Positions 2,482-30,995 of a stretch of 42,753 nt of DNA are shown piece after piece. Source of the DNA: a virus (Duplodnaviria > Heunggongvirae > Uroviricota > Caudoviricetes); the IMG/VR virus record IMGVR_UViG_2663763477_000009. The stretch is one strand, 5' to 3'. Numbering within the stretch: position 1 is the stretch's first letter; each line of letters begins with the position of its first letter. The notes below the pieces were generated by a model. That model was not told the origin of the DNA. It searched no databases and was given only the letters and a program-made list of their open reading frames with translations. A program made the translations under genes and the position numbers.

Positions 2482-5400
2482 TTAACATTCCCCCATCACG
2501 TCGCATATTTAACAGATTGCCCTGCACCCGCTGATCAACCATCCCCATAAGTGCTTTTATTGCCTGAGGGCCAATCTCTCCATTCTGGCCGTCATTTTGA
2601 ATAGTGATTTGGTATACAGGGGCATAGGTAATATCTCCGCCTCCATTACCACTTTTACTATTAATAGCTCTGACACCAAGAGAACCATCGGAAGTTCGTG
2701 TTAATGGCATAATGGCTTCCGGTCCAGCCTCACCAAAAACACCAGCCCCTTTTGCAAAAGCAAAAAATTGCGGGGAATCATAAATACCGTTCGAATACGT
2801 GCTCAATGACGGAGACTCATAAACACCGCCCTTTGCATTCGGAATAAATTTACTAATAGCACTCCCGATAGTTCCTAAAATCCCCCCAGAAGAACTGTTA
2901 CTAATGCTGTCGAAAATCCCAGTAATTGAAGCCTTTAATGCTATTCGACTAAGATCCGAAATCACGGAAGTAGCGAAAGAACGAAAATTTGCCTTGCCTG
3001 TCGTGACAAAATCACCCAGCGCATCGGTCATCCCATCAAACATCTGAGTCGTGGTTGATTTTATCTGCTCACTGATATCCTTAGTGTCATCCAGCCAGTT
3101 ATTGAATCCCTGGGAGGCACCACTAACCCAGTCTCCTGCCTGAATATCGAGCTGCTCGTTTTTCTGTCTGACAATTTCTTTTTCCCGTTCCAGAGCATCA
3201 TTCAGAGCCTGCATTTTCTCTTGAAAAACATGATCTGACATTCCACGGGATTTATCTGCATAGTCACGTTCAAGTTGCAGACGCTGATTGTTATATCCAT
3301 GTTCAATCCGCAGTAATTCCTGCTGGCGTTGCTGATTTTTATCGCCAACCCCATAACCAGCAATCTGAATATCATACCCCTGCTGACGATTATCAATCGA
3401 AGCCTGCAATGAATCACGCCATGCTGTTATTTCGGCGGATTCCTTGATTAGCCTGTTATTTTTTTCAATCGCAACATTTTTCTCCATCAACGTGGTTATT
3501 TCTTCCCGGTGTAAGAGAAGCGATTTCTGATCCTGGGTTAATTTCGATGATGGTCGTGACTCTAGGTCGGCAATCCGCTGACGCCACTTAACCAGTTCCT
3601 GTTCAGAGGAACTTAATTTAACGGTCAACTCAGCTTGTGAACTTAGTAACGCATTCTGTTGATTCAGATGATCAATCATTCGTTGGGCTGCATCATCAGA
3701 ATAACCTTTCGCCTTTGGTTGCTTTGGATCTTTATAACGCTCATTTATTTGAGCGATAAGATTATTATATTCTTCCTTTGAATACTGATTCTTTAGCTTT
3801 TCCAGTTTTGCAAGTTCACTAGCTCTCTGCTGCTCCCGGGTCTGATATTGTTTTGAAAAGGCATCTGCTCTCTGTCTGAGTTCAATTCCTTCCTGTTGTC
3901 GCTTGTTGTAATCGTTTATTGATGAATTTAGTACGTCCTGAGCAATTTTTTCTGCTTGAAGTACGCCCAATTGCTGCTTTAATCGTGCCAGCCTTTTATT
4001 TTGAGCTCCGCCATCTCCAATGCCACCTAACCCGAAAACTCCGGGTCGGGTATTTTTTTCTATTTCATCAATTTGACGGAGAACATCTGAGATTTTTTGA
4101 TCAAGGGAGGCCTCACGGCCAATATCCAGCATGGAATCCCATGCCCATTTTGCGGAGTCTGCGACAGCTTTCCATGCAGTCTCAAGATAACCAAGATTTT
4201 CTTTAATCTGGTTGGTGCGCTGGATCATTGAGGATGAGTATTCTTCTGTCGCAATGCGGGCGGCCTCCTGCTGGTTCCCTTCATCCTGTAGCGCCTTAAT
4301 CTGGTTATAAGTCGCAAGTGTCAGAAAATGGTACTGATCATTAAGTTTTGATATGGCACTGACAGGATCCTTTGCAATTTCATTGAAGTCATTAACCAGT
4401 TGTTCGGTTGATATTCCTGTTACTTCGCTCGTTTTTACTATCGCTGTCGTCACTTGCTCCAGCGAACTGCTCGCTACCTTTCCCGAACGCACAAGCTGAT
4501 TTAATACTGCCGCCGCAGCACCAGTTGTCGAATCAGCCGCATTCCCGGCACGTTGAGCTATATCGCCCAATTGCCCGCTGGTTGTCCCCAACTGATTTCC
4601 GGTAAGAATAAGAGATTTATTAAATTCGTCCTGCTCCTGAGAGCCTTTATAGTAAGCCAGTCCTAAGACCCCAACGGCTGCTGCGGCCAGGGTAAAAGGA
4701 TTAATTAATCCCAGCACATAAGAACCTACACCTTTGATCGCCGGGCCAATCCCACCGAACATATCTTTTAGCTGGCCGCCCTGCTGCATTAACACCATAA
4801 ATGGCGACTGACCAGTGGACAACCCAACAACAATATCCGTCATTTGTACAGGCAACATGCGCATAGCAAAAGCCGTTTGTTTTGCCGACATTCCGGTTTT
4901 GCTTAATTGTGATTGAGTAACCTCAAGCTCACTCCGCATAGCACGAAGTTTTCCAGAAAGCTCCTCATACATTTCAGGAGAAAGCATCCCCTTAGCTTTT
5001 GCTTCATTGAGCTGTTTCTGTTGTTCTACCAGACGATTAAAAGCAGTTCCGACAGGATCAAGTTGAGCAATCAGACGTTGCAAAGCAACAACCTGTTCAT
5101 CATGCGCTTTTGCTGCTTCTCGCTCTGCCTGAGCCTCTCCGGTAAGCTCTCGCCGTGTTTCCTGTATTTTTCGGCTATAATTCTCAAACTGAGAACCATT
5201 TATTTTCCCGGATGCAAACGCAGCATTAAGTTCATCATGCTGTTGTTCAAGATTTCTTAGCGCCGCAGCCAGAGGGTCGATCTTGTCCAGCATTCTTTGA
5301 AAGGCCTGAGCCTGCGCTTCCTGCTGGGCGGCAGCAAGTTTTCCGGCCTTCTCGGCTTCTCTCTGCGCTTGCGCAACCCCGCTCAATTCCTCTGTGGTTT

Positions 5401-11557: not shown

Positions 11558-12673
11558 TTAAATCCCTGCTTTTCTGAATACCTGTGCATCACGCTCACGG
11601 AGCTGCTTCAGCGTCAGCCATTCGCCTTTATCGGTGTAAAATTCATCTGGCGACATACCACCATCCCGAATCAGCTTTGCTCGGCTTTCCCCCACAATCT
11701 GTTTTTGTCTGGTGTAAGGCTGACGCAAAAACCATTCCCTGTAGGTTGTATCTCCGGCCACCACGCCATCCATGCTGGCCCGCTCAGCCGGGGAAATATC
11801 GCGAACATCAATACCCAGTTCCTTCGCTGATTTCAGAATGAACGTTTCCGTTGAGCGGCAGCAGAAATGAATTTTTCCCGGCCCCTGCAAATAAGGCACG
11901 CTGTGACCTACAGGTTTATTATTCAGCGTATATTTGAGGCGATCCCTGATTCGACATTGTGGCGTAGTACGATTATCAAGCGTTGATAACCATTGCTTAC
12001 CCTTAATCAAATCATTATTCGCGCTGGCAAAACTCTCACGGGCAGTAGCAGCAAGATGTCCAACCGCTGTTTTTGCAATGCTGGCCGCATTAGCCCGGCT
12101 CATCTGCAATGCACCATCCTGAAATCCCTTACTGACATGTCCCCGAATTTTTCTTGCGATCTGCTCATTGGTATCCCCCAGCAAAAAACCCTGACGCACT
12201 GTATTTGTTATGCGTCTGAGCCGATCCGCCTCAAGATCTGAGGCCCACTCACTGAGCAGTCGTCCCTGGAATGGTCGCGCCATTGCAGCGGCATAAAGTG
12301 CATCAGGAGAGATACCAACCAGAGGGTGAACATCAGCAACAAAATCAGGTAGCATAGAATCAAACAGACTTAACTGATAACCAGCCTCATAAATTGCCAG
12401 CTCGTTCAGCTCTCCGGAGAGACTGGTAAACATGCTGTTAATAGCAGTGCGGTTAACCTCTCTGACGCTCGCCAGAAGTGACTCCAGGCGCTTAACGGTA
12501 AAACTACCTGGATCGAGGCTGTCCAGTGCTATCAGCAGGCGAGCAGTAAGTTCCGCATCGCTGTCATTCAGTATTTTCACCATTCTGGCAGCCACGCCAG
12601 TGCTATAGCGGGATATCCAGACTGCATGAGCAATTGATTCATCACGCAGCCGTTCATTCACGGTTTGCATCAT
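11558..12673 (-). CDS. Head morphogenesis protein (Mu gpF / SPP1 gp7-like minor capsid protein)
   Basis: 371 aa directly downstream of and overlapping the portal gene, as F-like genes typically are. Confidence 0.75.
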   Translation of the reverse strand: MMQTVNERLRDESIAHAVWISRYSTGVAARMVKILNDSDAELTARLLIALDSLDPGSFTVKRLESLLASVREVNRTAINSMFTSLSGELNELAIYEAGYQLSLFDSMLPDFVADVHPLVGISPDALYAAAMARPFQGRLLSEWASDLEADRLRRITNTVRQGFLLGDTNEQIARKIRGHVSKGFQDGALQMSRANAASIAKTAVGHLAATARESFASANNDLIKGKQWLSTLDNRTTPQCRIRDRLKYTLNNKPVGHSVPYLQGPGKIHFCCRSTETFILKSAKELGIDVRDISPAERASMDGVVAGDTTYREWFLRQPYTRQKQIVGESRAKLIRDGGMSPDEFYTDKGEWLTLKQLRERDAQVFRKAGI

Positions 12674-14060
12674 TGATTTCCATCAGCATTACACTCTGAT
12701 TTTTTAATTCATCGATCACTTCCTCTGGACGGGAATCCTGATCGATAAATTTCAACGCCTGCAACACCCGAACCGCATCAATCTGACGTATATCACCGCC
12801 CTGACGCAATGACTGAACAGCCAGCGCGGAGGATGAGTCAAACACCTGGGCAGATACATCCAGTTCAGTGCGCACATCCACATTGCCACCGCAACTCTCT
12901 CCGATCCATTCCGCCATTATCTGGAGAATATTATCGAGGGCATCTTCGAGGGAGTTCGCCATTGTATAAAGCGGCGAGTTTTCCTGCATTCGCTCTTCAT
13001 TAGTCTGATCAACAGATTTGGTGGATGTATTTTCAGCACGCAGAAGTTTAGCGCCGGCATGACGCATCTGATTTTCCAGCTTCTCAAGTGATGTTTCGCC
13101 AGATTCTATCGCTGCGCCACTATGTTCAACATATTCGAGGCCATTTTTTGTTCTGTCCTCAAAAATCGTAGCGGTGGATGCACCAACCGTCAGTTCTTCA
13201 TTCCTGTCCAGCCCGTAGGCCACCAGCAATGGAACGCGGGCAACATGAAGAATATTGTCCTGCTCGCTCTGGCTTTGCCAGTGCTTGATATTCAGCAAGC
13301 CAAGATTAAGCAATGGCGGTGTACCACGCATAAATCCTGTTTTCTTCGTGTACAGTGTTACCAGAGGAATATCATCACGGCTGGTATTCCATGACTCATG
13401 AAGCGTCCAGACAGATTCGCCATTAGTGCCTTCGCTACGTCGATAAATTTCAACTCGACGGGGCATAATATGGCGGATCTGCTCCACCTTCTTCTGCCCG
13501 AAATCATCACCATCAATAATGATGACCTCTTTTATACGCAAATCAGTGAGAACAACTTTCCCTTTTTCAACTTTCGATTTCCATCCAATAACCTGGCGTG
13601 GATTCAGCATCGTAACGTACGGACGACCACCGGTCGCGTTTTCATCGGCTTTTGTCCGAATCTCTTTCATATCCGTTCGTGGATAGTCCACCAGCGCATG
13701 TGCCACACCATACTGAAATGCGAGGCTGAAAAATTGCTGCGCCCACACATCCAGTCGGCTCCCCTCCATGTCGATATTTTCTGCATATTCCCTGATTTTT
13801 GCCGGCGTTTCCTCACTCAATACTGTCGGCTCTGCAAATATGCGCCCAATATTTTGCTTGATGCTTTCTTCATACACAGGAAGTAGCGTAGCCACAGACA
13901 GGCGTTTTTTATAAGCGTCTTCATCTTCGTTAGGCCATTTTGGGAGATAATTTTCCCCCTGCCTGCGCATTTCAAGCGTACCGCCCATCAGTGCGTCGTT
14001 AATATCCCACGCCTCCAGCATATCGTTATAGTCGAGGTTGGGTGTTGATATATCAGCCAT
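12654..14060 (-). CDS. Portal protein
   Basis: 468-aa acidic protein immediately downstream of the large terminase gene. Confidence 0.85.
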   Translation of the reverse strand: MADISTPNLDYNDMLEAWDINDALMGGTLEMRRQGENYLPKWPNEDEDAYKKRLSVATLLPVYEESIKQNIGRIFAEPTVLSEETPAKIREYAENIDMEGSRLDVWAQQFFSLAFQYGVAHALVDYPRTDMKEIRTKADENATGGRPYVTMLNPRQVIGWKSKVEKGKVVLTDLRIKEVIIIDGDDFGQKKVEQIRHIMPRRVEIYRRSEGTNGESVWTLHESWNTSRDDIPLVTLYTKKTGFMRGTPPLLNLGLLNIKHWQSQSEQDNILHVARVPLLVAYGLDRNEELTVGASTATIFEDRTKNGLEYVEHSGAAIESGETSLEKLENQMRHAGAKLLRAENTSTKSVDQTNEERMQENSPLYTMANSLEDALDNILQIMAEWIGESCGGNVDVRTELDVSAQVFDSSSALAVQSLRQGGDIRQIDAVRVLQALKFIDQDSRPEEVIDELKNQSVMLMEINDANRE

Positions 14061-14062
14061 AA

Positions 14063-15373
14063 TTAAATCCGAAGTGATGTGACTCTTCCGGTCGGTTTGA
14101 CAATAGGGAATTGCTTAACGATGAAATAACCTCCGGCATCATTCGGGTGATCATTGCCAGATTTTTTATCAGGCTCCCCCTTCTCATCCCAGACCTGTTG
14201 CTCCAGAGATTCGGCATATAACGGGCAACGCTTCACATTAACTTTATAGCGACGCTCACCATTGGCATTGCAGAACATTGCATTCATTGAGTTAACGCGA
14301 TCTTTTACTGGCGGGTTCGAGCTGTTCACCACAACGTTAAAACCAGCCTGCTTAAGCTGGGCTATATCCGTCGTACTTGCGTTACTTGATTTTCTGGAAT
14401 CCCCGGAAGCATCTGGATAAATATAAATTTCCCTCACTTTCCGGTAATCATTCCCATCATACAGCCAGAAGCGTTCTTTAATGATGCGGATCATATCCGG
14501 CGTATCGTAGGCATTGATGATTTCAGTTACCGCACATGGAAGCCCCAAACGCAGCACATGGACGATTCCCGCCATCTTTCCAACGTTAAAATCCATCCCA
14601 ATATAAATCGGCTCCCCTGGCTGCTCCACTTCTTCGCAATTATTCAGTTTCCGGTCAAACTGATGGTAAACAGTACCACTTGTCAGGTTAGTAAACTGTC
14701 CTCGAAGATAGGCTTTAATCAGCTCTGGAGGGTATGATTCAAGAAGCGAAGGAATGTAATCTGCTGGCAGGTTCTTTTCATTATCGAAAGTAGATGCCTG
14801 CACCAGACCATACAGTGAGGCCAGCTCTGTTTTTTCACGCACGGCTTTAACAAACTGCTCGTAGACAAATTTGAATCCTTCCGGCGTGGTTGTAACGTCA
14901 ATACCGTTGCGAAGTCCATCAATCTTATAACGCATACGTGCAATTATCTTGCGCCACGCCGTTCTGGCTTTTTCCTTCGGCAAAATGTCCAGTTCATCCA
15001 CCAACGCATTACCAATTTTGAAACCGACGATCGTTTGTGGCTTCTCCATCGATCTGCAGATAGTGGTTCCCCGATACTGGCGTCCGTAATAAAAGTGAAC
15101 CTCTTTATTTCCCTCATTAATTTTTACGTTCAATCCCCAGTCAGCAGCAACTTCTTCCACTGTAGGGTAAAAAATATCGCGAATTTGGGGATACGTTGGC
15201 GCAAAATATCCCTGATTTATACCTGGATGCTCCCAAATCCCCTTGCATATGCCGCCACACCCAACCCATGTTTTGCCCGAGCCAAAACCAGCAATATAGG
15301 CTTTAAATTTATGGGGCATTGAAAGAAATCGCGCCTGAGGCACATTAAGCGTCGGAGAGATCATCTTCATCAC
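14063..15373 (-). CDS. Terminase large subunit
   Basis: Walker A-like GFGSGKT near the N-terminus, acidic nuclease-type C-terminal half, lies upstream of the portal gene. Confidence 0.9.
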   Translation of the reverse strand: MMKMISPTLNVPQARFLSMPHKFKAYIAGFGSGKTWVGCGGICKGIWEHPGINQGYFAPTYPQIRDIFYPTVEEVAADWGLNVKINEGNKEVHFYYGRQYRGTTICRSMEKPQTIVGFKIGNALVDELDILPKEKARTAWRKIIARMRYKIDGLRNGIDVTTTPEGFKFVYEQFVKAVREKTELASLYGLVQASTFDNEKNLPADYIPSLLESYPPELIKAYLRGQFTNLTSGTVYHQFDRKLNNCEEVEQPGEPIYIGMDFNVGKMAGIVHVLRLGLPCAVTEIINAYDTPDMIRIIKERFWLYDGNDYRKVREIYIYPDASGDSRKSSNASTTDIAQLKQAGFNVVVNSSNPPVKDRVNSMNAMFCNANGERRYKVNVKRCPLYAESLEQQVWDEKGEPDKKSGNDHPNDAGGYFIVKQFPIVKPTGRVTSLRI

Positions 15374-16439
15374 TCCTTACTCTGGCATCAACCACATTAA
15401 TATTGATCGCCACAGGCTGGGGATGTTCATTATCTTCCACCGTTTCGATCTCTTTGCGCAGCTTCTGGTTTTCCATTCTGCGCCGTTCAATTTCCAGTTC
15501 CCGTAGCCGCTTATCTGCACATAAAGCCCCGCCAGCAGAAAACAAACGCAACAATTCACGCCGGGCGGCAGCCTTATCCTCCAGCAGGATCTCAACGCCG
15601 AATTTTCCGAATTTTGCCCCTGCATATAATTGCCGCGCATCCCCATCAAGCAGAGTGGTATCAGCCATATAAAGCTGTCCCGTTCCCTCACCGCAGCACT
15701 TCGGGCAGTCCGGATTGGGTATGGCGTTATCAACAAAGCCGAGGCCTCCATATTCCGGTTCGGGTTTGCCATCTCTGGAAGCCTGCGCCGCTGCCTTGTC
15801 GAATTCTGCTATATCGCGCCACTGGTAGAGATGATTCTCGACCCAGCAATAACGGCAGTTAACACGGCGAAATTGTGCAAGCTGATTGGGGTCGGCCAGG
15901 ACAATAGCCATCAACTGACTCACTAGTAAATCCAGGTCTGCGGTATAGCGTTTCTGGTACTGATTGCGGAAGTAGCTGATAGCGCGAAAAACCCTGGCAT
16001 TTCTAAGCATACGACTGGCGTTGCTGTTAGCTGTCGCACCTTGCCCCTCATAACCGGCTAGTCGGTACGCCTCTGTCGGCTTTTTACCCTGAGCAACAAG
16101 CATCGCAAACTTAGCCTGCTGGTCAGAAATGCCGAATTCATCGGGACAGAACGAAAATTCCTCCGCGTCGCCCTCATTCAGGCCCGCATCGAATACTGGC
16201 TTTTTTTCCTGAGATTTTTCGTTCCGCTTTTGTGCAGTCTGCGCAGATTTTTTCTGCGCACTTTTTTGCGCAGTTTTGCACATTTCTGTCTGCGCATTTT
16301 TCGGAGTTTTTTTGATGTAACGACGGGCTGTTGCGTAATTCAGTCCCCTTGCTTCACACCATGCCACCGGAGATATACCGGAGCGGGTGTATTCAGCAAT
16401 ATACTCCTGCTGCAACGCCCCCCAGTCCGGTCTGCTCAT
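15345..16439 (-). CDS. Terminase small subunit (putative, N-terminal HTH)
   Basis: 364 aa, overlaps the start of the large terminase gene; N-terminal DNA-binding-like region and Cys-containing C-terminal region. Confidence 0.55.
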   Translation of the reverse strand: MSRPDWGALQQEYIAEYTRSGISPVAWCEARGLNYATARRYIKKTPKNAQTEMCKTAQKSAQKKSAQTAQKRNEKSQEKKPVFDAGLNEGDAEEFSFCPDEFGISDQQAKFAMLVAQGKKPTEAYRLAGYEGQGATANSNASRMLRNARVFRAISYFRNQYQKRYTADLDLLVSQLMAIVLADPNQLAQFRRVNCRYCWVENHLYQWRDIAEFDKAAAQASRDGKPEPEYGGLGFVDNAIPNPDCPKCCGEGTGQLYMADTTLLDGDARQLYAGAKFGKFGVEILLEDKAAARRELLRLFSAGGALCADKRLRELEIERRRMENQKLRKEIETVEDNEHPQPVAININVVDARVRSDEDDLSDA

Positions 16440-16442
16440 CAG

Positions 16443-16694
16443 TTAGTCCTGATTTTTATCCACCCTGAGTAGTTCGCGCAGAGCAAAGGCATCCCCTTTT
16501 CTGGCAAGCTTAAACAATGCCGCTCGTAACTCGGCTTCACCTTTCGCTCTGCCCTTACGGATGGCCGCATAAAAATCTGTCATTGCTTCCCGATTTTCTT
16601 TCAGTCGGTTCAGATCAACATCCAGAACGTCAGCGATTTGTTGTGCAGTCATCCGGCACGCTGCCAGAGACTCGACTTTCGAATACGGAATCAT
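16443..16694 (-). CDS. Small hypothetical protein, possibly DNA-binding
   Basis: 83-aa basic helical ORF immediately upstream of the terminase genes. Confidence 0.4.
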   Translation of the reverse strand: MIPYSKVESLAACRMTAQQIADVLDVDLNRLKENREAMTDFYAAIRKGRAKGEAELRAALFKLARKGDAFALRELLRVDKNQD

Positions 16695-17580
16695 TTGTCA
16701 CCCCCATTGATATGCAGGGTGTCTTCTTCCTGTATTTTTCGTGAAGGATTTTTACTGCAGCGTTGTTCCAGGTGACCTGATGGTGAATGCGTTTATGACT
16801 GGCACCCATAAGTGAGATTTTTACGCACGACGGCGCATACATGACGGAGTAAAAACTTTTAACGTAGGTTCCGGAATCCAGATACAGCTCGGTCATTCCG
16901 CCGCTGTTTTTCTGCGTCTGTTTCTGCCCTAACTGGACAGCACCGATCGTCATAAACAATTCACCACAGCGACCGAGATTCGTGTACGTATTCACATCCT
17001 CGTTAATGCGCCCCATGAATGAGAACGGTCGATCAACCGAACAGATAAAGCTGTTCATTGCCTTGCGTTTCACCCACGAAGCATGGCCGCCATTGTCACC
17101 AAGAAAATCCCCGCCCTGCGACATAGCGATGGAAAGAGCAGGTATTGATTCGTAGTACGCAAGCATTTCAGAAAGGATCTCATCCAGTTTCCTTATCGGG
17201 AAATAGGCCTGGTCATAGTTGCGATCCACCCGAAACTGGAACTCGTGATAATCATCATCGAGCTGAATGAAGTATTTACACCCGACCAGTTTTGCCTGGT
17301 CGAAACAGGCATTACGGGCGTAAAAAATTGAGCGGCGGTCACTAAAATTATCGGCTTCGTCAAAACGACTAGCAATATCGGCTTTGGAAAATACCAGCAC
17401 CTGTTCACCAAATTCAGCCATGTACTGATGCCGTGTCTTATCTTCATCATCAACAACGATAAAAATTTTCCCGGTATAGCCAGCACGACGCAACGTCCGG
17501 TAAGTCAGAACTTTGTCCGGTCGCCCGTGAGTCAGAATAAAGGCGCAAAAATCATCACGCATATTCCTCCTCCCCGCCAT
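16630..17580 (-). CDS. Hypothetical protein with GT-A-like features (possible nucleotide-sugar transferase)
   Basis: 316 aa with an N-terminal ILTHGRP...IFIVVDDED segment and a downstream QLDDDY (DxD-like) motif; functional call is tentative. Confidence 0.35.
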   Translation of the reverse strand: MAGRRNMRDDFCAFILTHGRPDKVLTYRTLRRAGYTGKIFIVVDDEDKTRHQYMAEFGEQVLVFSKADIASRFDEADNFSDRRSIFYARNACFDQAKLVGCKYFIQLDDDYHEFQFRVDRNYDQAYFPIRKLDEILSEMLAYYESIPALSIAMSQGGDFLGDNGGHASWVKRKAMNSFICSVDRPFSFMGRINEDVNTYTNLGRCGELFMTIGAVQLGQKQTQKNSGGMTELYLDSGTYVKSFYSVMYAPSCVKISLMGASHKRIHHQVTWNNAAVKILHEKYRKKTPCISMGVTNDSVFESRVSGSVPDDCTTNR

Positions 17581-18343
17581 GCATGATCTCCACCATGCGC
17601 TGCGTCATTCGGACAAATCCATTTTCAATAGCCTGCTGATAATCAATGATCACCAGCGCCGACTCCTCGAAAAGGCACTGAATTTCAGCGGGGGCATGAG
17701 CGTAATAGTCCGCAATTCTGCTGAAATTAAACACCGTGTGACGTTCTGCTGCACACAGGAGGAATTTCTCAATATCAGGATCAAGGGACGCCGAACGTAT
17801 CCGGCTGATCAGCTCCTGAGTTTTCGTATCGTCGTACAGTTCACTGATATCCGGTTTACCGCCTGACGGCTCATAAACAGGCGTATCAATTTTCGTCGTA
17901 TACGGCTCCTCCTCATTTCCTGTACCGGGCAAAACATCCGTCAACAGTTCATCAATTTCTGCCGGGATGAAGCCTGTCAGGGAGACATCAAAATCAGCAT
18001 TGATTAGGTCCGACAGCTCCATCCGCAACAGATCTTCATCCCAGCCAGCATTCATCGGCAGGCGATTATCTGCCAGGCGGTACGCCTTTTTCTGCTCATC
18101 CGTCAGGCCAGACAGAACAATGACCGGAACAGAATCCATTTTGAGCATTTCAGCCGCCATAACACGACCGTGACCCGCAATAATTTCGCCCTTTTCGTCA
18201 ATCAGCACCGGATTAGTCCAGCCGAATTGCTTAATACTTTCTACCAGTTGTGCCACCTGCTCAGTACTGTGCGTCCTGGCGTTGTGCGCATACGGTGACA
18301 ATTCTTGTAATGGGCGATAGACTATCTTTAATTTCTCGCTCAT
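17555..18343 (-). CDS. ParB/Srx-like nuclease domain protein
   Basis: N-terminal region IVYRPLQELSPYAHNARTHS...IIAGHGR typical of the ParB N-terminal fold; acidic C-terminus. Confidence 0.75.
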   Translation of the reverse strand: MSEKLKIVYRPLQELSPYAHNARTHSTEQVAQLVESIKQFGWTNPVLIDEKGEIIAGHGRVMAAEMLKMDSVPVIVLSGLTDEQKKAYRLADNRLPMNAGWDEDLLRMELSDLINADFDVSLTGFIPAEIDELLTDVLPGTGNEEEPYTTKIDTPVYEPSGGKPDISELYDDTKTQELISRIRSASLDPDIEKFLLCAAERHTVFNFSRIADYYAHAPAEIQCLFEESALVIIDYQQAIENGFVRMTQRMVEIMHGGEEEYA

Positions 18344-18480
18344 ACAGCCTTGCTTTATGAATAAAACGCACCCCAGCAGCCAGTGCTACTGGGGGCGGAG
18401 GTGTTGCTGGTAAAGTTAGGTATTGGATCAATGAGTGAGTCAACATAATATTAAACTCACAATTATAAATCAGCCATATA

Positions 18481-19956
18481 TTAGGAGCGCCAAAAAAAAC
18501 CTGAAAACAATATAATAACAGGATAAATTTCAAGGCGACCAAGAATCATAGCTATGCACATTAAATATTTTGCAATGTCATTAAGCACTCCGAATGACGA
18601 TGCAGTAGCCCCAAAACCTAATCCCATATTATTAATACATGCAGCCACTGTTGCAAATGATGTAAGAAAATCATATCCCATACCATTTAACACCAGTATA
18701 AAAAACACCGTGAAGAGAGTATAAAGAAAAAAGAAACTCCATACAGACCTCATTACACGATCTGTAACTATCTTCCCTCCTACATTTACACTCAACAACG
18801 CTCTGGGATGAGAAAGCTGATTTATCTCGTGTTTGCTTTGTTTGAAAAGTATAAGAAATCGAAGTGACTTAATTCCACCACAGGTTGAACCTATACATCC
18901 CCCAAAGAAACTTGACAACAGCAAAAACACTATCGTGTGCGTGGGCCAGTTTGCATAATCCTGCGTAGCTAAACCATTATCAGTGAGCATGGAGCTGGCA
19001 AGAAAAAACGAATGAATAAAACTTCCATGCAAGTCATACATACCTATATGCCAGACCTGGAAAGAGGTAACAATGATCACCCCTAAGGCTATTAACAGAA
19101 AGAAACGAAGTTCAATATCTCTGATTAAAGGTTTTATCGTTTTTCTGCTAATAACAATATACCAAAGAGTGAAGTTGAAAGCCGATAGCAGGGAAAAAGA
19201 ACCAGCCACCAGCTCAACCAAATAGTTATTAAAATATCCGATACTCTCGCTATGAGTTGAGAAACCACCAAGCGAAACTGTGGAAATCCCGTGACAAATA
19301 GCATCAAACAAAGGCATTCCTGCAAGTCTATAACAGACAATACAAGCAATACCTAATAAAGAATAAGTTATCCACAGTGTCCGTGACGTATCGGCCAGGC
19401 GGGGAGTGAGTTTGTCATCCTTAAATGGCCCCGGCATTTCTGACTGATAAAGCTTTGCACCACCAATACCCAATAATGGCAATACTGCAACCGCCAGAAC
19501 AATAACTCCTAAACCACCTATAAAATTTAACTGTGACCGATAGTACAAATATGCCCGAGGTAATGAACTAACATCATCAATTACAGTTGCTCCTGTTGTT
19601 GTTATTCCAGAAACCCCTTCAAACAGAGCATCAATGAACGTTAAATTAAGTTCTGAGTCAATCCATAAAGGGAATGCACTAATAACAGAAAACAAAATCC
19701 AAAACATTACAATTATAATAAACCCATCACGGGTACGTAATTGAATGCCAGATTTCTTAGTTGTATACCACGCTCCGCCACCAATGCAAAAAAATATAAC
19801 GAAAGTTATAAAGAAAACGAACAGGCTTTTTTCTTTATAAAACAATGCTACAACCATTGGTGGCAACATTGAAAGACTATAGAGCCAAACCAGGAACCCA
19901 CACATATGAGTAACAACTCTTACATGAGATGTATTCATATCTAAATATTCTTTCAA
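18481..19956 (-). CDS. trkG: Trk-family potassium uptake membrane protein TrkG (copy 1, full length)
   Basis: 491-aa polytopic membrane protein that I recognise as the prophage-borne TrkH paralogue TrkG. Confidence 0.9.
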   Translation of the reverse strand: MKEYLDMNTSHVRVVTHMCGFLVWLYSLSMLPPMVVALFYKEKSLFVFFITFVIFFCIGGGAWYTTKKSGIQLRTRDGFIIIVMFWILFSVISAFPLWIDSELNLTFIDALFEGVSGITTTGATVIDDVSSLPRAYLYYRSQLNFIGGLGVIVLAVAVLPLLGIGGAKLYQSEMPGPFKDDKLTPRLADTSRTLWITYSLLGIACIVCYRLAGMPLFDAICHGISTVSLGGFSTHSESIGYFNNYLVELVAGSFSLLSAFNFTLWYIVISRKTIKPLIRDIELRFFLLIALGVIIVTSFQVWHIGMYDLHGSFIHSFFLASSMLTDNGLATQDYANWPTHTIVFLLLSSFFGGCIGSTCGGIKSLRFLILFKQSKHEINQLSHPRALLSVNVGGKIVTDRVMRSVWSFFFLYTLFTVFFILVLNGMGYDFLTSFATVAACINNMGLGFGATASSFGVLNDIAKYLMCIAMILGRLEIYPVIILFSGFFWRS

Positions 19957-20075
19957 TTATAACCACCTTGCTGCAATATTATGATTATACTGTATAAAAT
20001 TTAACTCCTCTTAGATCTTACTTCACTGTTCCTTATGAAACAATCATCAAAATGAATCATATTGTAGTTAAGATT

Positions 20076-20552
20076 TTACTTTAAACACTGCTCGGTTATG
20101 TATTGCTGAGCACCTTCAAGTTGGGCCTGCATCATTACCAGTCGTTCCCGGAGGGTGAAATAATCCCGTTCAGCGGTGTCTGCCAGTCGGGGGCTGGTTG
20201 CATTATCCACGCCGGAGGCGGTGGTGGCTTCACGCACTGACTGACAGACTGCTTTGATGTGCAACCGACGACGACCAGCGGCAACATCATCACGCAGAGC
20301 ATCATTTTCAGCTTTCGCATCAGCTAACTCCTTCGTGTATTTTGCATCGAGCGCAGCAACATCACGCTGACGCATCTGCATGTCAGTAATTGCCGCGTTC
20401 GCCAGCTTCAGTTCTCTGGCATTTTTGTCGCGCTGGGCTTTGTAGGTAATGGCGTTATCACGGTAATGATTAACAGCCCATGACAGGCAGACGATGATGC
20501 AGATAACCAGAGCGGAGATAATCGCGGTGACTCTGCTCATTGCTGCCCCCAC
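20076..20552 (-). CDS. rzpR: Spanin inner-membrane subunit Rz (copy 1; without an adjacent holin/endolysin)
   Basis: 158 aa with an N-terminal TM segment and coiled-coil periplasmic domain; Rz1 is embedded in the +1 frame. Confidence 0.85.
20135..20320 (-). CDS. rzoR: Spanin outer-membrane lipoprotein Rz1 (copy 1), embedded in Rz
   Basis: 61 aa with lipobox VVGC and a Pro-rich tail ([14 protein letters not shown]), entirely inside the Rz frame. Confidence 0.8.
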
Positions 20553-20583
20553 AAACAGACTTCACGCTCAATCTCACGACGAG

Positions 20584-22053
20584 TCATGAGACCTTTCCAT
20601 TGCTTACCGCCAGCATATGTCCAGCGACGTAGCTGACAAGAATCATAGCTATGCACATTAAATATTTTGCAATGTCATTAAGCACTCCGAATGACGATGC
20701 AGTAGCCCCAAAACCTAATCCCATATTATTAATACATGCAGCCACTGTTGCAAATGATGTAAGAAAATCATATCCCATACCATTTAACACCAGTATAAAA
20801 AACACCGTGAAGAGAGTATAAAGAAAAAAGAAACTCCATACAGACCTCATTACACGATCTGTAACTATCTTCCCTCCTACATTTACACTCAACAACGCTC
20901 TGGGATGAGAAAGCTGATTTATCTCGTGTTTGCTTTGTTTGAAAAGTATAAGAAATCGAAGTGACTTAATTCCACCACAGGTTGAACCTATACATCCCCC
21001 AAAGAAACTTGACAACAGCAAAAACACTATCGTGTGCGTGGGCCAGTTTGCATAATCCTGCGTAGCTAAACCATTATCAGTGAGCATGGAGCTGGCAAGA
21101 AAAAACGAATGAATAAAACTTCCATGCAAGTCATACATACCTATATGCCAGACCTGGAAAGAGGTAACAATGATCACCCCTAAGGCTATTAACAGAAAGA
21201 AACGAAGTTCAATATCTCTGATTAAAGGTTTTATCGTTTTTCTGCTAATAACAATATACCAAAGAGTGAAGTTGAAAGCCGATAGCAGGGAAAAAGAACC
21301 AGCCACCAGCTCAACCAAATAGTTATTAAAATATCCGATACTCTCGCTATGAGTTGAGAAACCACCAAGCGAAACTGTGGAAATCCCGTGACAAATAGCA
21401 TCAAACAAAGGCATTCCTGCAAGTCTATAACAGACAATACAAGCAATACCTAATAAAGAATAAGTTATCCACAGTGTCCGTGACGTATCGGCCAGGCGGG
21501 GAGTGAGTTTGTCATCCTTAAATGGCCCCGGCATTTCTGACTGATAAAGCTTTGCACCACCAATACCCAATAATGGCAATACTGCAACCGCCAGAACAAT
21601 AACTCCTAAACCACCTATAAAATTTAACTGTGACCGATAGTACAAATATGCCCGAGGTAATGAACTAACATCATCAATTACAGTTGCTCCTGTTGTTGTT
21701 ATTCCAGAAACCCCTTCAAACAGAGCATCAATGAACGTTAAATTAAGTTCTGAGTCAATCCATAAAGGGAATGCACTAATAACAGAAAACAAAATCCAAA
21801 ACATTACAATTATAATAAACCCATCACGGGTACGTAATTGAATGCCAGATTTCTTAGTTGTATACCACGCTCCGCCACCAATGCAAAAAAATATAACGAA
21901 AGTTATAAAGAAAACGAACAGGCTTTTTTCTTTATAAAACAATGCTACAACCATTGGTGGCAACATTGAAAGACTATAGAGCCAAACCAGGAACCCACAC
22001 ATATGAGTAACAACTCTTACATGAGATGTATTCATATCTAAATATTCTTTCAA
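20584..22053 (-). CDS. trkG: TrkG copy 2 with a replaced C-terminus (last 19 aa exchanged for 17 unrelated aa at the duplication junction)
   Basis: Identical to copy 1 until ...CIAMIL, then diverges where the unit joins the endolysin 3' fragment. Confidence 0.8.
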
Positions 22054-22172
22054 TTATAACCACCTTGCTGCAATATTATGATTATACTGTATAAAATTTA
22101 ACTCCTCTTAGATCTTACTTCACTGTTCCTTATGAAACAATCATCAAAATGAATCATATTGTAGTTAAGATT

Positions 22173-22649
22173 TTACTTTAAACACTGCTCGGTTATGTAT
22201 TGCTGAGCACCTTCAAGTTGGGCCTGCATCATTACCAGTCGTTCCCGGAGGGTGAAATAATCCCGTTCAGCGGTGTCTGCCAGTCGGGGGGAGGCTGCAT
22301 TATCCACGCCGGAGGCGGTGGTGGCTTCACGCACTGACTGACAGACTGCTTTGATGTGCAACCGACGACGACCAGCGGCAACATCATCACGCAGAGCATC
22401 ATTTTCAGCTTTCGCATCAGCTAACTCCTTCGTGTATTTTGCATCGAGCGCAGCAACATCACGCTGACGCATCTGCATGTCAGTAATTGCCGCGTTCGCC
22501 AGCTTCAGTTCTCTGGCATTTTTGTCGCGCTGGGCTTTGTAGGTAATGGCGTTATCACGGTAATGATTAACAGCCCATGACAGGCAGACGATGATGCAGA
22601 TAACCAGAGCGGAGATAATCGCGGTTACTCTGTTCATTGCTGACCCCAC
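22173..22649 (-). CDS. Spanin inner-membrane subunit Rz (copy 2, part of the lysis cassette)
   Basis: 158 aa; differs from copy 1 at three residues; its start overlaps the endolysin stop. Confidence 0.85.
22232..22417 (-). CDS. Spanin outer-membrane lipoprotein Rz1 (copy 2), embedded in Rz
   Basis: 61-aa lipoprotein; one Ala-to-Pro difference from copy 1. Confidence 0.8.
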
Positions 22650-23131
22650 AAACAGATTTCACGCTCAATCTCACGACGAGTCATGAGACCTTTCCATTGC
22701 TTACCGCCAGCATATGTCCAGCGACGTAGCTGATCACATGCGCCTTTGATATCGCCCTGGTTTATTTTGCGAAGAAGCGTCGATGTTCTGAAATTGCCAG
22801 CACCCACGTTGTAAACGAATGAGTAAAGAGCGCCGCGCGTTGTTTCCGGTATATCGACTTTGATGTACGGGTTAATTTGTCTGGCGACAGTGGCAAGGTC
22901 TTTATTCAAGAGTGTTTTGCATTCTGCTTTGGTATACGTTTTACCGAGCATGATGTCTTTTCCTGTATGCCCGTGACATACAGTCCATACACCAACAATA
23001 TCTTTGTATGGTATGTAGCTGACACCTTCCAGACCATCGTTACCACTTGGGCCAGTGATTAACACTGATGCTATAGCAATTGCTCCGCCACCAATAGCAG
23101 CAGCAACGACTTTTCGTAATGATGGAGGCAT
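22634..23131 (-). CDS. SAR endolysin (phage-21 R-type lysozyme)
   Basis: 165 aa with an N-terminal Gly/Ala-rich signal-anchor-release segment ([18 protein letters not shown]) followed by a lysozyme domain. Confidence 0.85.
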
Positions 23132-23597: not shown

Positions 23598-23993
23598 CTA
23601 ACCTCGCATGTCAAAGCCAGATTTCTGAAAATCTCTGTAGACTTCCGGATTGTTGAAGGCCGGAAATTTGGCTTTATGAGCTGCGGACTTTATCGCTTCG
23701 CAATAGGCTTTATCACCGTTACTGGTAGATATTTTTAACGCCGTGCCATCCTGAGAGAATTCCATATGCAACCTGCATTTTTTCCCTTTCCAGTTATGCG
23801 GCTCATCAAGTTTGGCATTAATTGCAGCTCTGATTCCCCGCGCTTGCGCCCCCCATTCATCCTGATCATCCCAGCGTCCTGAACTGCAACTACCTGTAGC
23901 AGTAGTTTTGTGGCAATCTGAAGGGTGTAAAGGTGTGCATCCCGCAACAAAACCGACCCAAAAAGTCAACATAACGATTTTCTTTAATCCCAC
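23598..23993 (-). CDS. Outer-membrane lipoprotein with a TolA domain-III-like C-terminal domain (divergent paralogue)
   Basis: GTG start with GAGGAG RBS; signal peptide plus lipobox VAGC; C-terminal domain aligns with the pattern of the downstream paralogue (KxCxLxM...G...L...CEAIKSAAHKAKFPAF...EVYRDFQ). Confidence 0.7.
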   Translation of the reverse strand: MGLKKIVMLTFWVGFVAGCTPLHPSDCHKTTATGSCSSGRWDDQDEWGAQARGIRAAINAKLDEPHNWKGKKCRLHMEFSQDGTALKISTSNGDKAYCEAIKSAAHKAKFPAFNNPEVYRDFQKSGFDMRG

Positions 23994-24143: not shown

Positions 24144-24572
24144 TCAGGGTTTAAAATCCAGCACCCCATTTTGAAATACTTTATATACTTCCGGCGAAGG
24201 GGGGGCAGGTATATCAGCATTCTTTATCGCATTCATCGCTTCACGACATAAATCGAGGTCTCCACTTTCTCTTTTAACCTCCAGTAGAAGGCCATTCGGG
24301 GCCATATGCATTCTCAGTGTACACTCTTTTCCTGAATACTTACTCGCATCCCCGAACTGTTTTTCGATGGCGCTCTTGATTTGATGGGCATACAGACGGA
24401 TATCCTCACTAACATCAGAAGTACGTTCAGATGAACTCACATACTGTGTCTCTATTGCTTTATCGGAGTAATATGATGTACGGTCATGATAATTTGTCGA
24501 TACAGCATCAGTGCACCCGATAATAATCCCACTAATAATCAACGTAAGAATTGATGCGCTACGAAAACCCAT
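24144..24572 (-). CDS. Outer-membrane lipoprotein with a TolA domain-III homologue
   Basis: Signal peptide plus lipobox IIGC; the C-terminal 85 aa (YAHQIKSAIEKQFGDASKYSGKECTLRMHMAPNGLLLEVK...PSPEVYKVFQNGVLDFKP) closely parallel my recollection of the C-terminus of E. coli TolA. Confidence 0.75.
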   Translation of the reverse strand: MGFRSASILTLIISGIIIGCTDAVSTNYHDRTSYYSDKAIETQYVSSSERTSDVSEDIRLYAHQIKSAIEKQFGDASKYSGKECTLRMHMAPNGLLLEVKRESGDLDLCREAMNAIKNADIPAPPSPEVYKVFQNGVLDFKP

Positions 24573-28817: not shown

Positions 28818-29819
28818 TTAGTAATCTGCGTGTTTCGCACTTTTCAGAAATGCTTTCATATTTTCATTAGGTCGCTCAATTTCGAAGTTACTTCCATATA
28901 ACTCTTGTAATTTTGGCCATAACTTACTTAATAACCCTCTCCTGCGATAAAATGGATGTATCCAAACGGTAGATAGGTACGGAGAATTTGCATTTGAATT
29001 GTTTATTGTGACCAGCCCAACTAAACATTGTCGATAACCACTATTATCCATTGATTGTATTTCTTCGACGAATGGATACGCGATTACATCAGTCCAACCA
29101 TGATCGGTTGTATCCCATTGCATTCCGTCATGACATTCCTTCGACTGATAGCGGCGTAAAGCTACACACGCGAGCTTTTGCCAATCTGGAGAATTAATTG
29201 TGATCTCTTCATCGTATGACGCGCCTATTGGAGCGGGTATTGGTCTGATTAATCCAGCATGGCATTCATCATAGAACTTCATGTTTCCCTCAGAAACGTT
29301 GTGTACGTTGGGTTGCTCCATGTGTGCGCCATTCAAAAATAGCTCTGATAGTAGTGTATCTACACTGTAATCTTTATTGATTATTGTCGGCTTAGAGTTT
29401 TTCTTATTAAGGCCGCGAGTAACGATTTTTTGATCAATGTTAACAACATGGAATAATCCGTCGGGGAGGCTAGCGAACCACGATGGGGCATCGGACCAGA
29501 ATAGCATGCCTTTTGTACTTCTTAAGAGTTTAATTAAGTTAATACAAGCTTCTTCACTAGTCTTGCCGTTGATGCGAAGTATGTTAGGACTAAAGTAATA
29601 TTCATCCATATCAGGGAATGCAGCTTCGCAAAACTCCTGTACATAATTTAGCACCTGGATTCTACAGAGATCATCATAGCTGGTAATAACTAAGGGGGTA
29701 TCTTCATTACTATTATGATTATCAATAATGCAATCTATAGCGAGACTTACTGCTTTGCGTATCACTTCAGTTGAATCTAACGACTCTAAAAATTTTGTCT
29801 TTCGTGTGCGAATATCCAT
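28818..29819 (-). CDS. Cargo gene B: hypothetical protein with a GNAT-like C-terminal region
   Basis: 333 aa in an AT-rich block; C-terminus VWIHPFYRRRGLLSKLWPKLQELYG resembles the GNAT acetyl-CoA-binding motif; start lies 15 nt after the stop of gene A. Confidence 0.6.
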   Translation of the reverse strand: MDIRTRKTKFLESLDSTEVIRKAVSLAIDCIIDNHNSNEDTPLVITSYDDLCRIQVLNYVQEFCEAAFPDMDEYYFSPNILRINGKTSEEACINLIKLLRSTKGMLFWSDAPSWFASLPDGLFHVVNIDQKIVTRGLNKKNSKPTIINKDYSVDTLLSELFLNGAHMEQPNVHNVSEGNMKFYDECHAGLIRPIPAPIGASYDEEITINSPDWQKLACVALRRYQSKECHDGMQWDTTDHGWTDVIAYPFVEEIQSMDNSGYRQCLVGLVTINNSNANSPYLSTVWIHPFYRRRGLLSKLWPKLQELYGSNFEIERPNENMKAFLKSAKHADY

Positions 29820-29834: not shown

Positions 29835-30857
29835 TTAAAATTCATGAATGAACGGTTTGTCATCTGGTTGCAAAATGGTGGTTTTATTCGTTGCTACATT
29901 TAAACTGTTGTAGAGCATAATTGCCAGGTTCGATGCATTTTCAATCAGCGTTTCAAGATCCTGGTCTGTAATCACTACGAGGTTCCCTTCTTTATCCTTT
30001 CCACCACGATGCACTAAGTGATTTCGATTGAGGGTTGCCAATTCAATAGCTTCTATCGGACAGTCTTTTTGTACTTTTATATCGAATGTAGCTTCATAGC
30101 GGTCGATTACCTTTTTAGTGCTATGCCAGCTTGCACTGATCAAGTGTTCCTTGATTGACCTGATTAGCTCTCCCCTAATTTTCTCGATGGGTTCACCCTT
30201 GAAAGGCAACGCAGCAATATCTTTGCTTACTTTAAATTCAGTCTTACCTTTTTCTATACAATTGGCTATGTAGACATCATCTTTCTCTATAGAATTAATG
30301 AATAGCTCAACATAAAGCGTTTCCAAAGCTGTAATAACATTCGTGTAGAGCAAACTAAGCAAGTGGTTTTTTTGCTGTTGTTCAGTTTTATCTTTTGCAA
30401 GTTTTTTTATTTTATCGATATTATCAATGAATTTTAAATACGGATTACCGGAAGACGTTACAGCGTCGTAGATATCATCATCGTACCAATCATCTATATT
30501 ATTTGAGTTTCCAGACCAGTCAAAACATTGTGTTTGTAATTCATCTACTAATTCCTCAATATACTCAGATTTAACATATTGACCGAAGATGGATTGTAGT
30601 TCTTCGCTCGCATCATACGGCCCGCCATATATGTAAGCATAGCCACCTTCTCTACTTTCATACGGACAAGCATTTGCCGGATCTTCAAAGTTTTCAAAGA
30701 ACCAGTTTTTCATTACTTCGAGTTGATCTTTTTTGCTTATGTATTTTAAAGATTTTAGTGGAACTTTCTTTCCATTAACCTCGAAAACAATTTTCACGAT
30801 GTAACGCTCCCTTGTATCAATTGCGCAACTATTATACCACAGCGAAATACAGGGCAT
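29835..30857 (-). CDS. Cargo gene A: hypothetical protein with a HEPN-like R-N-x3-H motif near the C-terminus
   Basis: 340 aa from the ATG preceded by AGGAGG; motif LATLNRNHLVHRGG in a helical C-terminal region; AT-rich codon usage unlike the flanking prophage genes. Confidence 0.6.
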   Translation of the reverse strand: MPCISLWYNSCAIDTRERYIVKIVFEVNGKKVPLKSLKYISKKDQLEVMKNWFFENFEDPANACPYESREGGYAYIYGGPYDASEELQSIFGQYVKSEYIEELVDELQTQCFDWSGNSNNIDDWYDDDIYDAVTSSGNPYLKFIDNIDKIKKLAKDKTEQQQKNHLLSLLYTNVITALETLYVELFINSIEKDDVYIANCIEKGKTEFKVSKDIAALPFKGEPIEKIRGELIRSIKEHLISASWHSTKKVIDRYEATFDIKVQKDCPIEAIELATLNRNHLVHRGGKDKEGNLVVITDQDLETLIENASNLAIMLYNSLNVATNKTTILQPDDKPFIHEF

Positions 30858-30995
30858 AACCTGCCTCCTTAAACTAACATACCATGAGCCAGCAATGTCC
30901 GCTATTGGCACAAAGCGGACAACCACGCTAGCTCTCCCCTGTGCCAGAAAAATGTCAATTTACATATGAACTAATGCTCTTTGATCTAGTAACGT

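Follow-up and report, generated by a model that had tools for sequence, protein, structure and literature searches.

A ParB-like protein with an undescribed C-terminal module and its TAGT-family glycosyltransferase at the head of phage packaging operons: a candidate DNA glycosylation system

The subject of this report is a pair of adjacent genes in a 42,753-nucleotide (nt) stretch of viral DNA (IMG/VR record IMGVR_UViG_2663763477_000009; Caudoviricetes), referred to at its full length as the window, which is a Rac-type lambdoid prophage of Escherichia coli. The late genes on its minus strand follow the order lysis genes, trkG, ParB-like gene, glycosyltransferase gene, small open reading frame (ORF), TerS, TerL, and portal. 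The ParB-like gene (17555..18343, minus strand), hereafter the partner, is a 262-aa ORF that corresponds to full-length YnaK, and the transferase gene lies directly after it on the same strand (16630..17562). An initial annotation, made from the letters of the window, had placed two ORFs here on the minus strand, as the ORF list confirms, and each of the two proteins has more than 7,700 database relatives, so that both ORFs are real genes rather than chance reading frames. The initial annotation had given the second protein 316 aa, which is the length of the ORF from its first ATG (16630..17580), whereas its true start is very probably M7 (ATG 17562..17560), yielding a protein of 310 aa, because homologues align from M7, the PGAP annotation starts there, a Shine-Dalgarno sequence (GGAGGAGGA) is present, and the start overlaps the stop codon of the ParB-like gene. 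At the junction of the two genes (17555..17574, minus strand), the Shine-Dalgarno sequence GGGGAGGAGGA precedes the overlap ATGCGTGA, where the ATG of the transferase (17562..17560) runs into the TGA of the partner (17557..17555), and this arrangement indicates that the partner and the transferase are translationally coupled.

The transferase matches the Pfam family PF20691, TAGT ('TET-associated glycosyltransferase'), over residues 14-228 with a score of 118.8 bits (curated cut-off 27.5, E 4e-34), matches phrog_842 with an E-value of 8e-104, and is named 'GREB1-related protein' by PGAP/NCBI. The TAGT family was reportedly defined by Iyer et al. in 2013. An AlphaFold model of the protein matches GT-A enzymes in the PDB, namely SpsA, glycogenin, ColGalT1, and SunS, with a Foldseek probability of 1.0, and its best viral matches in BFVD are TAGT-domain phage proteins (E 3e-19). 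The transferase is predicted from this model to have a GT-A fold, in line with the GT-A-like protein of the initial annotation; no PDB entry was matched by a profile of the aligned transferases. The AlphaFold models of both proteins were built from shallow alignments (13 and 16 sequences), and good confidence is limited to the ParB domain of the partner and, in the transferase, to the N-terminal half, the C-terminal parts being unreliable. The DxD pattern noted initially corresponds to D108-D109-D110 (17251..17259, minus strand), the metal and nucleotide-sugar motif within a family signature of R20, DDD, and E194-D195. Across 38 homologues from bacterial and archaeal viruses, no substitution occurs at R20, D109, D110, or D195, and conservation is at least 90% at D108 and E194. 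Phage GT-A DNA glycosyltransferases and JGT, the base-J glucosyltransferase of kinetoplastids, are reported to carry this R...DDD...ED[Y/F] signature as well (bioRxiv 10.1101/2023.12.21.572611).

Conservation of the transferase is high, with a mean pairwise identity of 54% across 32 diverse loci and 41% identity to a copy in a haloarchaeal virus, and it extends beyond the Pfam domain into a highly conserved stretch of residues 229-290. The protein is basic, with a median isoelectric point (pI) of 9.0 and a net charge of +7. In Escherichia, it carries a C-terminal tail of ~26 residues (16630-16694) that is absent from the homologues of other genera and that reaches 23-65 nt into the start of the next ORF, according to which start codon is taken. 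The PHROG label of phrog_842, a T2/T6-type 'beta-glucosyl-HMC-alpha-glucosyltransferase', is not transferable to the window protein, as the prophage has neither a hydroxymethylcytosine pathway nor a first transferase. The nearest T4-like relative, from Aeromonas phage 65, shares 23% identity with the transferase, and about the same figure (23%) holds for T-even-type members of the family in general.

In the AlphaFold model of the partner, a ParB/Srx N-domain and a short helical segment precede an acidic linker of low confidence, after which comes a conserved C-terminal module. The N-domain (about aa 5-95; 18059..18331, minus strand), in which G57-H58-G59-R60 replaces the GERR box of ParB, gives a marginal match to Pfam ParB_N (29.3 bits, cut-off 26.3, E 9e-7) and a strong one to phrog_620, 'ParB-like partition protein' (E 2e-90). 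By Foldseek, the model matches Noc, ParB-CDP, PadC, KorB, and sulfiredoxin with probability 1.0, the free serine kinase is also among its structural matches, and a profile search with the partner matched ParB and Noc in the PDB. The ParB/Srx fold ascribed to this protein at the outset is thereby borne out by sequence families and structure alike. The fold of this domain is shared with the CTP-dependent DNA clamps ParB, Noc, and KorB, and the window protein retains a G-x-x-R box (GHGR), whereas in other respects it and its family differ from them: the box arginine is missing at seven of 32 loci, no helix-turn-helix or C-terminal dimerization domain was found in the partner with Pfam, no ParA is annotated in the prophage (PGAP, strain EC2), and no parS-like palindrome lies near the module, there being no inverted repeat of 12 nt or longer in 15300-18500. 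The NCBIfam model TIGR00180 scores 38, far under its cut-off of 58. By these features, the partner does not appear to be a canonical partition ParB, which would combine a helix-turn-helix with a parS site and a ParA. The partner is also acidic in both of its parts, with pI values of 4.8 and 4.6, and the ParB part is weakly conserved (mean pairwise identity 29% over the 32 loci).

The ParB part is also related to DNA methyltransferases. It resembles the N-terminal portion of phrog_498, 'DNA methyltransferase' (partner residues 3-141, E 6e-51), and that of 'MTase_II', the type II methyltransferase model of PADLOC (partner residues 10-144, E 1.5e-38), and a tblastn search with the ParB part retrieved 429 phage records with identities of up to 56%, many of which are the N-termini of DNA methyltransferases. 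The partner itself has no methyltransferase catalytic domain, ParB_N being its sole Pfam domain.

The remainder of the partner includes a near-invariant linear motif in the linker, Y148-T-T-K-I-D-T-P-V-Y157-E-P (residues 148-159; 17867..17902, minus strand), with the consensus Y-[T/S]-x-K-[I/V]-x-x-P-x-Y-x-P, which is present in 34 of 34 partners of diverse phyla. Among 224 partners, the first tyrosine is found in 222, threonine or serine in 221, the lysine and the proline in all 224, and the second tyrosine in 222. The predicted local distance difference test score is below 50 throughout residues 136-159, the motif included. The motif is followed by a C-terminal all-helical domain (about aa 166-255; 17579..17848, minus strand) with the signature FL..AA.RH..F.[YF]..IA..YAH.....Q.L.E.SALVIID...AIE.G., and motif and helical domain together form what is here termed the C-module, the constant companion of the glycosyltransferase. 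Its mean pairwise identity across the 32 loci is 47%, against 29% for the ParB part. The C-terminal 118 residues belong to no Pfam family, and a profile search of the PDB with the C-module gave chance-level matches only and no relative, while 1,187 clusters among 1.84 billion representative proteins contain it. In the best 150 of these representatives, the C-module is nearly always C-terminal in proteins of 250-300 aa, and in none is it fused to a transferase, so that gene fusion gives no support for a physical interaction between the two.

In Vibrio phage pv27, the C-module occurs alone as a protein of 139 aa that adjoins the transferase on its upstream side and shares 53% identity with residues 136-244 of the partner (E 2e-40). 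Because the C-module stands by itself in this phage, it is the part of the partner that obligatorily accompanies the enzyme, the ParB domain being an accessory, and the conserved core of the partner is this previously undescribed module rather than the ParB domain by which the protein has been named. The C-module gene of pv27 (OR413349, 191 kb), which carries no ParB domain, lies at 4489-4908 of its locus record (L126), and the pair is located in that phage among replication genes (primase, exonuclease, and helicase) and not before terminase genes.

The two genes form an obligate module in both directions of search. A scan with the transferase alignment, restricted to one genome per species, gave 42 loci in Enterobacterales, Bacteroidota, Saccharibacteria, Desulfobacterota, Chlorobi, Firmicutes, Planctomycetota, Ignavibacteria, and Actinobacteria, and 40 of these have a homologue of the partner directly upstream on the same strand, one of the two exceptions lying at a contig end and the other being a partial match. 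The reverse scan, with the C-terminal part of the partner against IMG/VR viral contigs, gave 80 loci, all of which have the transferase downstream of the C-module; the two genes abut or overlap (-13 to +11 nt) in 69 and are separated by a single gene in the other 11. A viral-contig scan seeded with the transferase returned near-identical E. coli prophages only and was uninformative on context. The pair is also found in cultured viruses, including the haloarchaeal virus HHTV-2 (41% and 43% identity), Lactobacillus gasseri phage phi jlb1, the L. delbrueckii phages c5, LL-Ku, phiLdb, Ld17, and PMBT4, and Nocardia phage NTR1. The initial view of two neighboring genes thus understates the arrangement, which is an obligate, translationally coupled module with a conserved C-module at its core.

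Several versions of the module depart from the common form. At one viral locus (L162), a gene at 4338-5306, between partner and transferase, encodes a histidine phosphatase of the CobC/phosphoglycerate-mutase type fused to a cytidylyltransferase of the TagD/RfaE-II type, and up to nine other viral loci of the 80 have an insert of similar length (about 930 nt); the fusion gene suggests that some versions of the module may bring their own supply of a nucleotide-activated donor. At another locus (L141), a class-I methyltransferase is weakly matched in that place, a Hyphomonadaceae locus (L114, 3581-6161) has two tandem transferase paralogues after the partner, an Ignavibacteria locus (L102, 189-1739) has a partner of 516 aa with a long N-terminal extension, and in a further locus (L117, 6840-7799) a second ParB-like ORF follows the transferase.

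A TagD-like cytidylyltransferase in one variant, together with the wide occurrence of the gene in prophages, would fit lysogenic conversion, in which an envelope polymer such as O-antigen or teichoic acid is modified and superinfection blocked, as by gtrABC or TarP, and TarP is among the reported structural relatives of phage GT-A enzymes (bioRxiv 10.1101/2023.12.21.572611). This explanation is nonetheless highly improbable. No Pfam-recognizable flippase or GtrA/GtrB-type partner is present at the locus, and neither protein matched a membrane-protein family in the family searches, which included no explicit transmembrane prediction. The module is also carried by the strictly lytic phage c5 and by an archaeal virus, and it is always coupled to a ParB-like protein in a late packaging operon rather than placed in a moron slot with its own promoter.

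The position of the pair in phage genomes is nearly constant. TerS and then TerL lie downstream in at least 21 of 24 diverse loci, and in phage c5 the two genes are ORF1 and ORF2, straight after the cos site. In the window, the packaging genes, recognized by Pfam Terminase_2, Terminase_6N/6C, and DUF4055 and by phrog_51, are TerS (15345..16439), TerL (14063..15373), and the portal gene (12654..14060), all on the minus strand. The position immediately upstream of the terminase genes given in the initial annotation is correct apart from one small ORF (16443..16694, minus strand; 83 aa, called as 70 aa by PGAP) that intervenes before TerS. This ORF matches phrog_309 (E 8e-23), resembles a portion of a small-terminase family, and is confined to the enterobacterial versions of the locus (L082-L085 and L110). 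On the other side of the module, 46 upstream neighbors are heterogeneous and include VRR-NUC, SSB, DnaB, Rz, Mor-like activators, one N6/N4 methyltransferase, and one PAPS reductase. The TerL proteins downstream belong to different families by Pfam (Terminase_6N, Terminase_3, T7-type, and GpA), and the acceptor of the transferase therefore cannot be one particular terminase.

With the pair placed immediately 5' of TerS and TerL, and directly after cos in c5, a direct role in packaging comes to mind, in which the partner, labeled 'ParB-like nuclease' by many sources, would be a nuclease or a pac/cos accessory comparable to the HNH proteins of some cos phages, and the transferase would act on a virion or other phage protein. 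Glycosylation of virions by phage-encoded transferases does occur in other phages. Such a role is improbable here, however, since the module accompanies several unrelated terminase families in both cos and pac phages, making a specific protein partner or virion acceptor unlikely, and no capsid or terminase protein could come near the conservation that the transferase shows over bacterial and archaeal viruses. The supposed nuclease, that is the ParB domain, is moreover the least conserved part and can be absent, and most phages with the same terminase types do without the module, so that packaging does not require it. The variety of terminases and the conservation of the enzyme both argue for an acceptor that is either universal, such as DNA, or conserved together with the enzyme, such as the partner, over a variable phage or host protein.

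The explanation tentatively favored is that the pair constitutes a late-expressed, two-component DNA glycosylation system, with the partner acting like the ParB activators of thymine dioxygenases; this may well be correct, though it is put forward with considerable reserve. Features of the sequences that support DNA as the target are the membership of the transferase in TAGT, its GT-A fold and intact catalytic residues, the ParB module shared with methyltransferases, the slot in the packaging operon, the constant pairing, the coupling of the genes, the combination of a basic enzyme with an acidic partner, and the phosphatase-cytidylyltransferase gene between the two genes at L162, which is consistent with provision of an activated donor. 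The conservation of the transferase, very high for a phage protein both among bacterial loci and in the archaeal virus, likewise points to a universal acceptor such as DNA. In the proposed mechanism, where physical interaction, late expression, the DNA acceptor, and the protective role are each inferred, the two proteins would be made together with the packaging proteins, and the 310-aa protein would be the catalytic subunit, a metal-dependent GT-A enzyme using a nucleotide-activated sugar. The C-module of the partner may dock to or activate the basic transferase, and the ParB/Srx N-domain may couple the enzyme to double-stranded phage DNA. The product would most likely be sugar-modified phage DNA, formed after replication and before or during packaging, and progeny genomes modified in this manner would be protected against nucleases in the next host.

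The nearest known parallel is ParB176, in which a nucleotide-binding domain and a helix-helix segment are joined by a linker of ~50 aa to a C-terminal domain, no DNA-binding domain being present (O'Toole et al., PNAS 2026, PMC13229309). A subclass of phage thymine dioxygenases, of which 5mYOX176 is a member, requires a cognate ParB-like protein and does so only on double-stranded DNA, the pairs are cognate-specific, and mutants of the NTP site remain active (PMC13229309). Clusters of dioxygenase and ParB genes are also frequently found near terminase genes (PMC13229309). The partner in the window appears from its model to have the same architecture, likewise without a DNA-binding domain, and it adjoins its enzyme in the same kind of place. 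The two systems differ in that the enzyme is a glycosyltransferase here and an Fe/2-oxoglutarate dioxygenase there, and the window partner has 262 aa against 194 aa for ParB176. They also differ in what is essential: in ParB176 it is the N-domain, the linker being less so, whereas in the family described here the linker motif and the C-domain form the core and the N-domain is dispensable.

A second parallel is offered by orphan methyltransferases fused to ParB, such as ORF37 of EJ-1 and gp03 of P8625, which share with the window partner the ParB N-domain, the helical segment, and the genomic slot. In these proteins, the ParB part is covalently joined to an N6/N4 methyltransferase domain, whereas in the window it continues into a C-module without enzymatic function, the glycosyltransferase being a protein of its own from a translationally coupled gene. 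A fusion of this type fills the same slot before the terminase genes in Verrucomicrobia phage P8625 and in Streptococcus prophage EJ-1. The head of the phage packaging operon is thus taken either by a ParB-methyltransferase fusion or by a ParB domain and C-module with a TAGT transferase.

With the other enzymes of the TAGT family, among them the phage transferases that act on 5-hydroxymethylcytosine (5hmC) and 5-hydroxymethyluracil (5hmU), the second glucosyltransferase of the T2/T6 type, and JGT, the window protein shares its sequence family, GT-A fold, and R...DDD...ED signature. It differs from them in its obligate non-catalytic partner and in the conserved residues 229-290, as well as in the source of its acceptor, which for the other DNA-acting enzymes of the family is made by a TET/5mYOX protein or a hydroxymethylase of the same genome, none of which was found here. 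This last difference heads the points that weigh against DNA glycosylation. Neither a TET/5mYOX protein nor a dCMP/dUMP hydroxymethylase, ThyS-like protein, or C5-methyltransferase was detected in the prophage, either in the PGAP annotation of the nearly identical EC2 prophage or in Pfam scans of the window ORFs; the same precursor enzymes are not annotated in the complete 31.8-kb genome of the lytic phage c5, and none of them is among the 46 upstream neighbors of the diverse loci. The characterized DNA-acting TAGT enzymes place their sugar on 5hmC, on 5hmU, or on a sugar that is already attached (bioRxiv 10.1101/2023.12.21.572611), and ordinary DNA bases offer no hydroxyl group of this kind. 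Further difficulties are presented by the partner, which is acidic and has neither a recognizable DNA-binding domain nor a parS-like palindrome nearby; by its ParB domain, which is poorly conserved and missing in pv27; and by the motif, of which the three hydroxyl-bearing residues are essentially invariant in a family whose member GREB1 glycosylates a protein. Since no enzyme for a hydroxymethyl-pyrimidine has been found, DNA glycosylation remains a proposal.

A related gap is apparent in the literature, as about 65% of the phage contigs with such transferases lack a neighboring 5mYOX or ThyS gene in the collection of the NEB group, who named ParB-like proteins and terminases among the neighbors and set the group without 5mYOX and ThyS aside (bioRxiv 10.1101/2023.12.21.572611). 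A more specific version of the proposal would have the transferase, once docked, glycosylate ordinary double-stranded DNA, at an unmodified base or at an end made by packaging, without any hydroxymethyl-pyrimidine precursor, and this is considered doubtful. The initial annotation suggested phage DNA as the target of the pair, with glycosylation as one possibility, and this stands as the best-supported reading, through the TAGT family, the methyltransferase-type ParB domain, and the packaging slot, although it was made without regard to the missing hydroxymethyl-pyrimidine enzymes or to the Tyr/Thr motif of the partner as a potential acceptor.

That the partner is itself the acceptor is the main alternative, a serious one although unlikely. 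The transferase would O-glycosylate the invariant Tyr or the Thr/Ser of the motif, in the peptide PYTTKIDTPVYEPSGGK, much as glycogenin acts on a tyrosine of its own or GREB1 on Thr/Ser of ER-alpha, and the glycosylated acidic ParB-like protein would be the functional product, for example as a packaged or DNA-associated protein. GREB1, a large eukaryotic protein of animals belonging to the same Pfam family as the window transferase, O-GlcNAcylates ER-alpha at T553/S554 (PMC7968844), and the TAGT family can therefore use protein acceptors, Thr/Ser residues in this instance. Threonine and serine interchange in the partner motif and are not swapped for non-hydroxyl residues (T or S in 221 of 224), the motif lies in a low-confidence and probably flexible linker of the sort typical of modification sites, and enzyme and motif are kept together across the 122 loci examined (pairing in 40/42 and 80/80). 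The basic transferase and the acidic partner would suit the roles of enzyme and substrate, the structural neighbors of the transferase include glycogenin, and the missing hydroxymethyl base would no longer be a problem. Conversely, six fixed positions of twelve followed by a conserved 90-aa domain resemble an element for docking or activation more than a simple acceptor site, and glycogenin belongs to another glycosyltransferase family, the match being at the level of the fold only. Glycosylation of the partner would also leave the constant pre-terminase position and the ParB module shared with methyltransferases unexplained, and no function is known for a glycosylated ParB-like protein.

The need for a universal acceptor to explain conservation from Enterobacteria to haloarchaeal viruses could also be satisfied by another nucleic acid or nucleotide, such as RNA, tRNA, a second messenger of host defense, or an NAD-derived signal, the module then serving anti-defense or host takeover. 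Proteins of the ParB/Srx fold bind CTP, ATP, or GTP, and some of them are kinases of small molecules (PMC12704722), one being the free serine kinase, which is among the structural matches of the partner. Ribose hydroxyls are, moreover, chemically ordinary acceptors. This explanation is judged quite improbable, as no characterized TAGT member uses such substrates, no PADLOC defense model was matched besides the ParB part of methyltransferases, and the ParB module is of the type fused to DNA methyltransferases. Anti-defense genes are usually early and located in variable regions, unlike a module that heads the packaging operon.

What was already known is the family, the fold, and a loose association of ParB proteins with DNA-modification genes. 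New are the obligate module, the undescribed C-terminal domain and motif of the partner, the independence from a hydroxymethyl-pyrimidine pathway, the equivalence in position and ParB module to the ParB-methyltransferase fusions, and the range from E. coli prophages to an archaeal virus. No paper was found in the literature that joins ParB, TAGT/GREB1, and glycosyltransferase in the sense of this module, and a 2025 survey of the ParB-CTPase fold makes no mention of glycosyltransferases or terminases (PMC12704722). The literature found on ynaK says nothing about its function. Glycosylation of phage DNA is understood only where a hydroxymethyl-pyrimidine is made first, and a large subset of the unexplained transferases without 5mYOX or ThyS can now be described as a defined two-gene module in a fixed pre-terminase place. 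If the acceptor is DNA, the chemistry would be new and would bear on restriction evasion, type IV restriction systems, and biotechnology, and glycosylation of ordinary double-stranded DNA in particular would be a previously unknown DNA modification, present in Rac-type prophages and in more than a thousand lineages of bacterial and archaeal phages. With the partner as acceptor, the pair would be a self-contained protein-glycosylation switch in phages. Either outcome would widen ParB-like activation from dioxygenases to glycosyltransferases. The module is easily testable, as K-12, with a remnant of the partner and no transferase, provides a clean background, and the cultured viruses c5, phi jlb1, and HHTV-2 carry it.

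Within E. coli, the stretch 16400..18500 of the window is 100% identical to strain EC2 and matches 1,610 of 5,426 complete genomes, 867 of them with a coverage of at least 80%, so that a near-complete two-gene stretch occurs in about 16% of complete E. coli genomes, in Rac-type prophages. In genomes of the K-12 type, the match is limited to 18090..18500 of the window and annotated as ynaK, of which it is the 5' part; the deletion in K-12 took out the transferase and the head genes. The gene ydaY of K-12, considered as a possible remnant of the transferase, was dropped, as the annotation places it among genes of the tail region.

Upstream of the partner, the lysis cassette is separated from the ParB-like gene by an insertion of trkG (18481-19956), a potassium transporter gene and host-type cargo. 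A pattern scan identified a putative terminator-like hairpin after trkG (18371..18394, minus strand; 10-bp stem, 7 G-C pairs, T-rich tail), and co-transcription of the module with the lysis genes would need read-through of this element, for example by Q-antiterminated late transcription. A promoter scan gave a number of sites no higher than expected by chance.

The trkG region is also the site of a tandem direct duplication (18540-20636 and 20637-22733), with a unit of 2,097 nt and 7 internal mismatches, which spans Rz/Rz1 and trkG. As the 3' end of the second trkG copy (20584..22053) contains the junction of the duplication, the TrkG encoded there ends in a different and shorter C-terminal tail and has 489 aa instead of 491 aa. 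None of the 5,426 complete E. coli genomes covers at least 80% of a 301-nt query that spans this junction, and the duplication is therefore either strain-specific or an artifact of assembly.

Elsewhere in the prophage, a single 536-aa ORF (32212-33822, minus strand) combines DUF1376 (YdaU-like) with an IstB/DnaA-type ATPase (YdaV-like) and reads as a fused replication protein; in EC2, ydaU and ydaV are separate and flagged as pseudogenes, with a frameshift and an internal stop. Two ORFs between the lysis genes and the Q-like region (23598-23993 and 24144-24572, minus strand) encode TolA C-terminal domains (E 1e-14 and 2e-23) and could serve as decoys against TolA-dependent entry of phages or colicins. 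Two adjacent hypothetical proteins of 333 and 363 aa (28818-29819 and 29835-30926, minus strand), which have only weak, sub-threshold matches to a GNAT acetyltransferase and a HEPN/RES N-terminal domain, lie in a stretch of low GC content (33-40% around 27-31 kb) and may represent defense or toxin cargo.

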